Part shown: piece by piece, positions 10,826-11,795 of the stretch
Layout of the letters: each line of letters starts with the position of its first letter
Numbering within the stretch: position 1 is the first letter of the stretch
Virus genome (UHGV): UHGV-0152983
Reading direction: 5' to 3' (one strand)
DNA: 13,750 nucleotides
Source of the DNA: a virus
Position numbers and translations under genes: made by a program
Notes under the pieces: model-generated
Seen by the model: only the letters and a program-made list of their open reading frames with translations
What the model was told of the DNA's origin: nothing
Databases searched by the model: none

Positions 10826-11176
10826 ATGAGTGAAGTAACAGATTTAGTTGTTATTGAAAAAGCAAATGCAATGACTGTATTTCAGTCTGCCGACCAGATT
10901 GAAGAAATTCTCCAAAAGGTTGAACGTGAAGTTATGTCATTTGTGCCTGATATCACAACGGCAAAGGGCAGAAAGGAGATCGCTTCTCTGGCGTATAAAG
11001 TTGCGCAGACGAAAACATATCTCGATGGTCTTGGCAAAGACCTTGTTGCTGAACTGAAGGAAATTCCAAAGCTAATTGATGCCAACCGCAAGACAGTGCG
11101 CGATCGCCTTGATGAACTGAAAGCCAAGGCGCGCCAGCCTCTTACTGATTATGAGGAAGAATCAGGCGCGGATTAA
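10826..11176 (+). CDS. Hypothetical protein, 116 aa, possibly the N-terminal portion of a split gene
   Basis: Internal Met (MSEVTDLVVIEK...) of track ORF 10730..11176 with GGAGG 5 nt upstream; ends 26 nt inside the next ORF, which is in a different frame. Confidence 0.5.
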   Translation: MSEVTDLVVIEKANAMTVFQSADQIEEILQKVEREVMSFVPDITTAKGRKEIASLAYKVAQTKTYLDGLGKDLVAELKEIPKLIDANRKTVRDRLDELKAKARQPLTDYEEESGAD

Positions 11177-11795
11177 AGCCGAAGAAGAAGCTAAGGCAGC
11201 AGCTGAAGCTCTCGCAAAGCAAATTGAGTCTGACCATGAAATAGCGATTTTGATGGATCGCGAATTTGACCGCCAAAGAGAAGAGGCAAGACTCAAAGCG
11301 GAGCAGGAAAAGCGAGAGCATGAAGAACGATTAAAAAGAGAAGCTGAAGAGAAAGCCAGAGCAGAAGCCGAAGCAAAGGCAAAAGCCGAAATTGAAGCAG
11401 CAGCAAGGCGAGAAGCAGAAGCTAAGGCCGCAGCGGAACGTGCAGAGCGTGAACGCATTGAAGCCGAGCAACGAGCACAGCGCGAAGCAAAAGAGGCAGC
11501 AGAACGAGCTGAAAGAGAAAAGCAGGCAGCAATTGAAGCAGAACGCAGAAAAGCACAGGAGGAGGCTGAACGAATCCGTCGCGAGGCTGAAGCAAAAGAG
11601 CAAGCCAGAATAGCAGAAGAAAAAAGAATCAAGGACGAAGAAGAGCGTAGAGCAAAGGATAAAGCTCACCGGAAAGAAGTAAATAACAAAATACTTGCTG
11701 ACCTTATCAAGGTTGGCGCATCAGAAGATGTTGCTAAAAATATCATAACAGCCATCGTAAAAGGCGAAGTATTCGCAACAAAAATAACCTACTAA
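11151..11795 (+). CDS. Highly charged Glu/Ala/Arg/Lys-rich coiled-coil protein, 214 aa, possibly the C-terminal portion of a split gene
   Basis: ORF in track; long low-complexity EAEAKAKAEIEAAARREAEAKAAAERAERERIEAEQRAQREAKEAAERAEREK tract; no Shine-Dalgarno before its ATG; overlaps the preceding ORF by 26 nt. Confidence 0.45.
   Translation: MRKNQARIKAEEEAKAAAEALAKQIESDHEIAILMDREFDRQREEARLKAEQEKREHEERLKREAEEKARAEAEAKAKAEIEAAARREAEAKAAAERAERERIEAEQRAQREAKEAAERAEREKQAAIEAERRKAQEEAERIRREAEAKEQARIAEEKRIKDEEERRAKDKAHRKEVNNKILADLIKVGASEDVAKNIITAIVKGEVFATKITY

Follow-up and report, generated by a model that had tools for sequence, protein, structure and literature searches.

A frameshifted agt-like accessory gene in the early-left operon of a lambdoid/P22-like prophage

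Between 10826 and 11795, two overlapping reading frames together make up, with high probability, one prophage accessory gene, a relative of phi80 agt, that has been inactivated by an inserted T at position 11162 of the window, as we call the whole stretch of 13,750 nt from UHGV virus genome UHGV-0152983 that was analysed here. The window copy carries a recent frameshift that abolishes function, in an accessory gene that is optional and has been little characterised. Coordinates of the gene, its lesion and its surroundings are collected in Table 1.

Table 1. Features of the agt-like locus and its surroundings. Positions are those of the window unless another sequence is named.
Feature	Position	Strand	Basis
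Whole agt-like gene, pseudogene, 970 nt	10826..11795	+	RefSeq frameshifted CDS; T removal
Inserted T causing +1 frameshift, GAAGAA[T]CAGGCG	11162..11162	+	Sole gap column of gene alignment
ORF1, N-terminal fragment, 116 aa	10826..11176	+	Translation; structure model pLDDT 86.9
Premature TAA stop of shifted frame	11174..11176	+	Translation
ORF2, C-terminal fragment, 214 aa	11151..11795	+	Translation; no Shine-Dalgarno; predicted structure
Shine-Dalgarno GGAGGA of the gene's true start, ATG 10826	10817..10822	+	Anti-SD duplex energy
Intrinsic terminator-like hairpin and T8 run just upstream of the gene	10784..10813	+	Terminator scan
Mosaic boundary common to two prophage types	10641..10810	+	CUS-3 and CE10-type matches
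cIII, next gene of the early-left operon	11820..11951	+	Pfam Lambda_CIII, E 4e-15
Q30* codon	L004 (phiv205-1) 514-516		Sequence comparison
IMT5155 copy of the gene	L013 (APEC IMT5155) 1433-2400		Q30* and A-run loss

Results

Reading frames and translation signals

The ORF finder returned two plus-strand frames in this region, 10730..11176, inside which lies the ATG at 10826, and 11151..11795. As the preliminary description had stated, the two coding regions share 26 nt (11151-11176) in different frames; codons of ORF1 start at positions equal to 2 modulo 3 and those of ORF2 at 0 modulo 3, and ORF2 is therefore in the +1 frame. Residues 1-112 of ORF1 are native and retain the conserved VPDxxTxKGR...GK motif, while the last four (SGAD) are out of frame, the translation ending with ...PLTDYEEESGAD at its stop. 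ORF2 starts with MRKNQARIKAEEEAK... and ends with ...KILADLIKVGASEDVAKNIITAIVKGEVFATKITY at its stop; its first four residues (MRKN) are non-native and come from a fortuitous ATG, and the remainder is native Q113-Y322. The charged repeat and short tail that had been noticed in ORF2 are both real features of the reconstructed protein, in which residues 113-285 are 85% E, A, R, K or Q and the last 37 residues (NNKILADLIK...ATKITY) have an ordinary composition and align with the tail of phi80 Agt. To judge from the sequences, the arrangement is not a chance overlap, because the two ORFs match two halves of one widespread family, PHROG 1376.

The gene's true start has an anti-SD duplex energy of -9.3 kcal/mol, among the best 2% of window positions. 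For ATG 11151 the corresponding value, taken over the 17 nt upstream, is +1.2 kcal/mol, and about 95% of positions 9000-13700 pair with the anti-SD at least as well; the earlier observation that ORF2 has no Shine-Dalgarno is thereby borne out. A promoter scan of 10600-11900 found no sigma-70-like site able to drive ORF2 separately.

The inserted T

In an alignment of the window gene with that of six phages (Sf6, phiv205-1, HF4s, HK544, mEp213 and IME10), T11162 is the single indel across the gene, and all six phages are without it. Intact copies measure 969 nt, against 970 nt in the window, and five of the six phages (Sf6, HF4s, HK544, mEp213 and IME10) carry one 969-nt CDS for a 322-aa protein. 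When T11162 is deleted in silico, the translation is identical at 322 of 322 positions to Sf6 gp33, the HF4s protein and IME10 Orf53. One indel, with identity once the T is removed, therefore indicates a single, recent lesion. The preliminary description had proposed one gene interrupted by a frameshift and had suggested homologue alignment as a check; the relatives indeed encode a single fused protein, the difference being T11162. Its pseudogene option is likewise upheld, in that removal of a single indel restores the ORF and RefSeq flags the frameshift.

Family relationships

The closest relative is the Sf6 gene 33 protein (NP_958209), encoded at the same locus, from the tL2A terminator to cIII, and identical to the HF4s 'antitoxin protein' and IME10 Orf53; compared with Sf6 gene 33, the window copy has one extra T and is split into two ORFs. 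Sf6 gp33, with which the restored window protein coincides, is 51% identical to phi80 Agt over the full length (322 aa, E 1e-64). The phi80 (Lula) protein, Agt/Mog (AFV29176), has the same 322-aa length, and the similarity includes the C-terminal tail. In D3, a Pseudomonas phage, the N-terminal ~110 residues of Orf53 are 52% identical, and the gene lies directly upstream of Erf and exonuclease; D3 Orf53 is an intact ORF of 354 aa whose central helical region and C-terminus diverge from the window protein.

The phrog_1376 profile matches the intact form full-length (E 2e-110), with ORF1 occupying profile positions 1-114 and ORF2 positions 161-362. Two further profiles, phrog_17211 (profile length 116) and phrog_21365 (214), match window 10826-11173 and 11151-11792 end to end, and so appear to stand for the two parts of this broken gene. 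Homologues from Pseudomonas, Vibrio, Erwinia, Yersinia, Acinetobacter and other phages share a conserved N-terminal region of ~110 residues, within which the motif VPDxxTxKGRxxIAS...K...GK is near-invariant. In a 24-sequence alignment nine columns (D42, T45, K47, G48, R49, I52, K63, G70 and K71) are invariant, and all of them are present in ORF1. Each of six diverse phages examined (D3, phi80 and phages of Erwinia, Yersinia, Vibrio and Acinetobacter) carries the homologue as one ORF of 320-354 aa. The window copy is split into 116 and 214 aa rather than forming one uninterrupted ORF of ~320-355 aa, and is therefore a pseudogene member of the Agt/Mog family, not a functional one.

Pfam assigned no family to the intact protein and gave only sub-threshold noise for ORF1, and no NCBIfam model came near its cut-off. 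The name TolA, which RefSeq gives to the locus, was rejected: TIGR02794 scores 9.2 bits (E 0.62) against a cut-off of 59.45. In composition, the Ala/Glu/Lys-rich helical stretch is like domain II of TolA, and by its sequence the name is an artefact that reflects composition only.

Predicted protein shape

Each fragment was modelled separately with AlphaFold, ORF1 with the 24-sequence alignment and ORF2 as a single sequence; the homologue search for ORF1 had yielded no protein longer than 199 aa, all being short or partial, and these made up the N-terminal alignment. The ORF1 model has short helices at 12-20 and 22-37, a conserved loop at 38-45 and a helix from 46 to the end, and the ORF2 model (pLDDT 89.7) a helix of ~186 residues followed by a short helix and a tail. 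The intact protein would thus begin with a small helical cap, continue as a charged helix of ~250 residues and end in a small C-terminal module, and the frameshift is predicted to cut within the long helix and not at a linker. A Foldseek search of the PDB with the N-terminal model gave no significant fold match (best E 2.2).

Operon context

In this lambdoid/P22-like prophage the agt-like gene is an accessory member of the early-left (pL) operon, and downstream of it come cIII, kil, a pair of small ORFs, erf, an ORF of 127 aa and abc2 (PF11043). It thus lies in the early-left region upstream of the recombination module. The small ORFs, 12085-12243 and 12164-12334 (+), of 52 and 56 aa, share 80 nt in different frames and lack a Pfam family; the CUS-3 and Sf6 annotations list both, in Sf6 as genes 30 and 29. 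Just upstream of the agt-like gene, also in the pL operon, window 9968-10651 (+) encodes a full-length Nmad5-family protein (PF18757, 'nucleotide modification associated domain 5', E 6e-71), for which the ORF finder chose a TTG start at 9968; the ATG at codon 21 is likelier, because the Pfam match begins at residue 24.

Between the Nmad5 and agt-like genes stands the hairpin of Table 1, equivalent to the tL2A terminator annotated in Sf6. With a strong terminator directly upstream, the agt-like gene would be expressed only via N-antiterminated pL transcription. In the CE10 prophage cIII comes directly after the Nmad5 gene and terminator; the agt-like gene, missing there, is therefore optional, an insert flanked by a recombination-prone boundary.

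The location is shared by much of the family. The phi80 agt gene likewise sits in the early-left operon upstream of recombination genes, and homologues lie immediately or closely upstream of such genes in phi80, D3 and the Yersinia and Acinetobacter phages, the downstream genes being gamL-recT-exo, erf-exo or recE-recT. The Erwinia phage has more genes between the homologue and the recombination genes, and in Vibrio phage Seahorse the homologue showed no recombination-gene synteny. In phi80, agt is directly upstream of gamL, whereas the window has a P22-type Abc2 instead of GamL and its agt-like copy is frameshifted; tblastn of the window with phi80 GamL gave nothing better than E 2.0, and the adjoining partner toxin is thus missing while Abc2 is present.

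Distribution and mosaic context of the allele

A 41-mer centred on T11162 occurs unchanged in 38 of the 515 matching E. coli complete-genome records. The T is absent from the other 477, the great majority of which differ by a one-base gap. The same +T allele is found in six further independent Logan/ENA read-set assemblies. Phage CUS-3 matches the surrounding 1.2-kb region (10700-11900) at 100% identity and has the two overlapping ORFs as well; the region is also 100% identical in many E. coli K1/ExPEC chromosomes, including those of UTI89, NU14, IHE3034, APEC O18, PMV-1 and UM146; it is 98-99% identical to Sf6, HK544, IME10, HF4s, mEp213 and others. Over the common stretch carriers of +T are 99.7-100% identical, so the absence of further decay weighs neither way. 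One carrier (L018; Logan SRR29127163, 476-1006) has an additional 1-nt gap relative to the window and a second ORF of 176 aa, the extra gap being either more decay or an assembly error.

Public annotation already covers the locus in two forms. The CUS-3 GenBank record enters the halves as hypothetical proteins ECRS218_0048 and ECRS218_0049; RefSeq/PGAP annotates the identical NU14 locus as one CDS, a pseudogene with the note "frameshifted". The frameshifted state is already known from these annotations, and the gene is an ordinary pseudogene.

CUS-3 matches the window at 99.9%, and only over 10641-13750, the window not being CUS-3 upstream of ~10641; identification of the whole window as CUS-3 was rejected on this ground. 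Window 7000-10810 matches a different prophage (CE10, W224N, DETEC-S589), also at 99.9%. The window is a mosaic of a CE10/W224N-type left arm (1-10810) and a CUS-3-type right arm (10641-13750). Its exact join is absent from 20,395 records of complete E. coli genomes, W224N and DETEC-S589 carry both parent types at separate loci, and the join is either that of a genuine recombinant prophage or that of a chimeric contig. The +T allele also occurs behind two other upstream contexts, all joining at ~10641-10656.

A second lesion

In a sister prophage lineage, phiv205-1 and eight APEC/K1 genomes carry an independent nonsense lesion, Q30* (CAA to TAA). In APEC IMT5155 an A6 run of the gene (at about window 11620) is in addition one A short, and PGAP describes the gene as "frameshifted; internal stop".

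Discussion

From the native start, translation yields a 116-aa fragment that stops at the premature TAA. The 210 remaining native codons are left in an ORF in another frame, the ATG of which lacks a ribosome-binding site, and ORF2 is probably translated poorly or not at all; reinitiation at ATG 11151, 23 nt upstream of the ORF1 stop, would be inefficient without a Shine-Dalgarno.

Single-base indels are the commonest assembly error, and an error of sequencing or assembly would mean that the T is missing from the real DNA. However, T11162 is flanked by A and C, outside any homopolymer, and the identical 41-mer stands in 38 complete-genome records from many strains and laboratories, in the CUS-3 record, which derives from RS218, and in six unrelated read-set assemblies, so that we regard an error as highly improbable. 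Its place outside a homopolymer and its recurrence in records and assemblies argue that +T is a genuine mutation, and the sequencing indel offered as an option in the preliminary description can be set aside. Programmed or leaky +1 frameshifting at GAT-TAA could in principle restore a full-length protein: if T11174 were skipped, the product would have 322 aa, exactly the ancestral length in the in silico fusion, and differ from the ancestor only in SGAD for QARI (junction ...EEESGADKAEEE...), and stop codons are able to stimulate such shifts, as in prfB. Against this, the frameshift is not conserved, since 477 of the 515 E. coli records and all the other phages that were compared lack it, and a P-site GAU moved by +1 becomes AUU, with which tRNA-Asp is unable to re-pair. 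There is no strong SD-like stimulator in GAATCAGGCGCG upstream, nor a homopolymer run for transcriptional slippage. A site of the prfB type would combine a conserved shift with a slippery P-site codon and an SD-like stimulator, and the window offers neither. Because the shift is unconserved and the site is not slippery, programmed recoding appears very unlikely. The preliminary description had ranked recoding as the less likely option and had seen no classical +1 site in the GAT TAA context; the confinement of the shift to a minority allele (38 of 515) and the lack of +1 re-pairing at GAT-TAA agree with both judgements.

The T could also be real and the split itself functional, the 116-aa N-terminal fragment working alone, the helical C-terminal part perhaps being made by termination-reinitiation at ATG 11151 and the allele being kept by selection. 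Every invariant family position is kept in ORF1, ORF2 is intact with its ATG inside ORF1, neither fragment shows other damage, and 38 complete-genome records and at least 3 upstream mosaic contexts contain the allele. But ORF2 has no Shine-Dalgarno (+1.2 kcal/mol), the cut falls within a continuous predicted helix with no linker, and no split form occurs among the distant homologues examined. The carriers are near-identical, so that persistence of the allele requires no selection, and in L018 a further indel has already cut ORF2 to 176 aa. We consider a functional split distinctly unlikely, and retain the reading of one agt-like gene inactivated by T11162.

What the intact gene does is best approached through phi80, whose record gives Agt the description "anti-toxin for Gam; Mog (modifier of Gam)" and labels gamL, the neighbouring gene, "host RecBCD/SbcCD enzymes inhibitor; toxic without Mog". 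Rotman et al. in 2012 reportedly called agt the antidote of gamL. The putative antidote or modifier activity toward an anti-RecBCD protein draws on the phi80 GenBank note and on that study. By analogy, the intact protein, very elongated and helical, would modulate the phage anti-RecBCD/recombination module. The anti-RecBCD types of lambdoid phages in a 2025 Genome Research survey of Rec modules are Gam, GamL, Abc2 and MuGam (PMC12315714), and Agt is nowhere mentioned in that survey. Because the gene is optional in this phage group and the window prophage carries Abc2 rather than GamL, its loss would probably be neutral, or nearly so, for the lysogen.

Two independent lesions, Q30* and the +T at codon 113 (38 records), in prophage arms that are closely related might instead be read as a sign that loss or truncation of the agt-like gene is favoured in K1 ExPEC/APEC lysogens, with the retained 116-aa fragment maybe acting in the lysogen as a stand-alone RecBCD-related modulator. 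We think this unlikely and offer it as speculation.

The result is mainly an annotation clean-up and in itself matters little: a single agt-like gene underlies both CUS-3 "hypothetical proteins", ECRS218_0048 and ECRS218_0049, which are its halves. Unlike the broken copy, the Agt-like family, which is widespread beside phage recombination modules and essentially uncharacterised, merits study.
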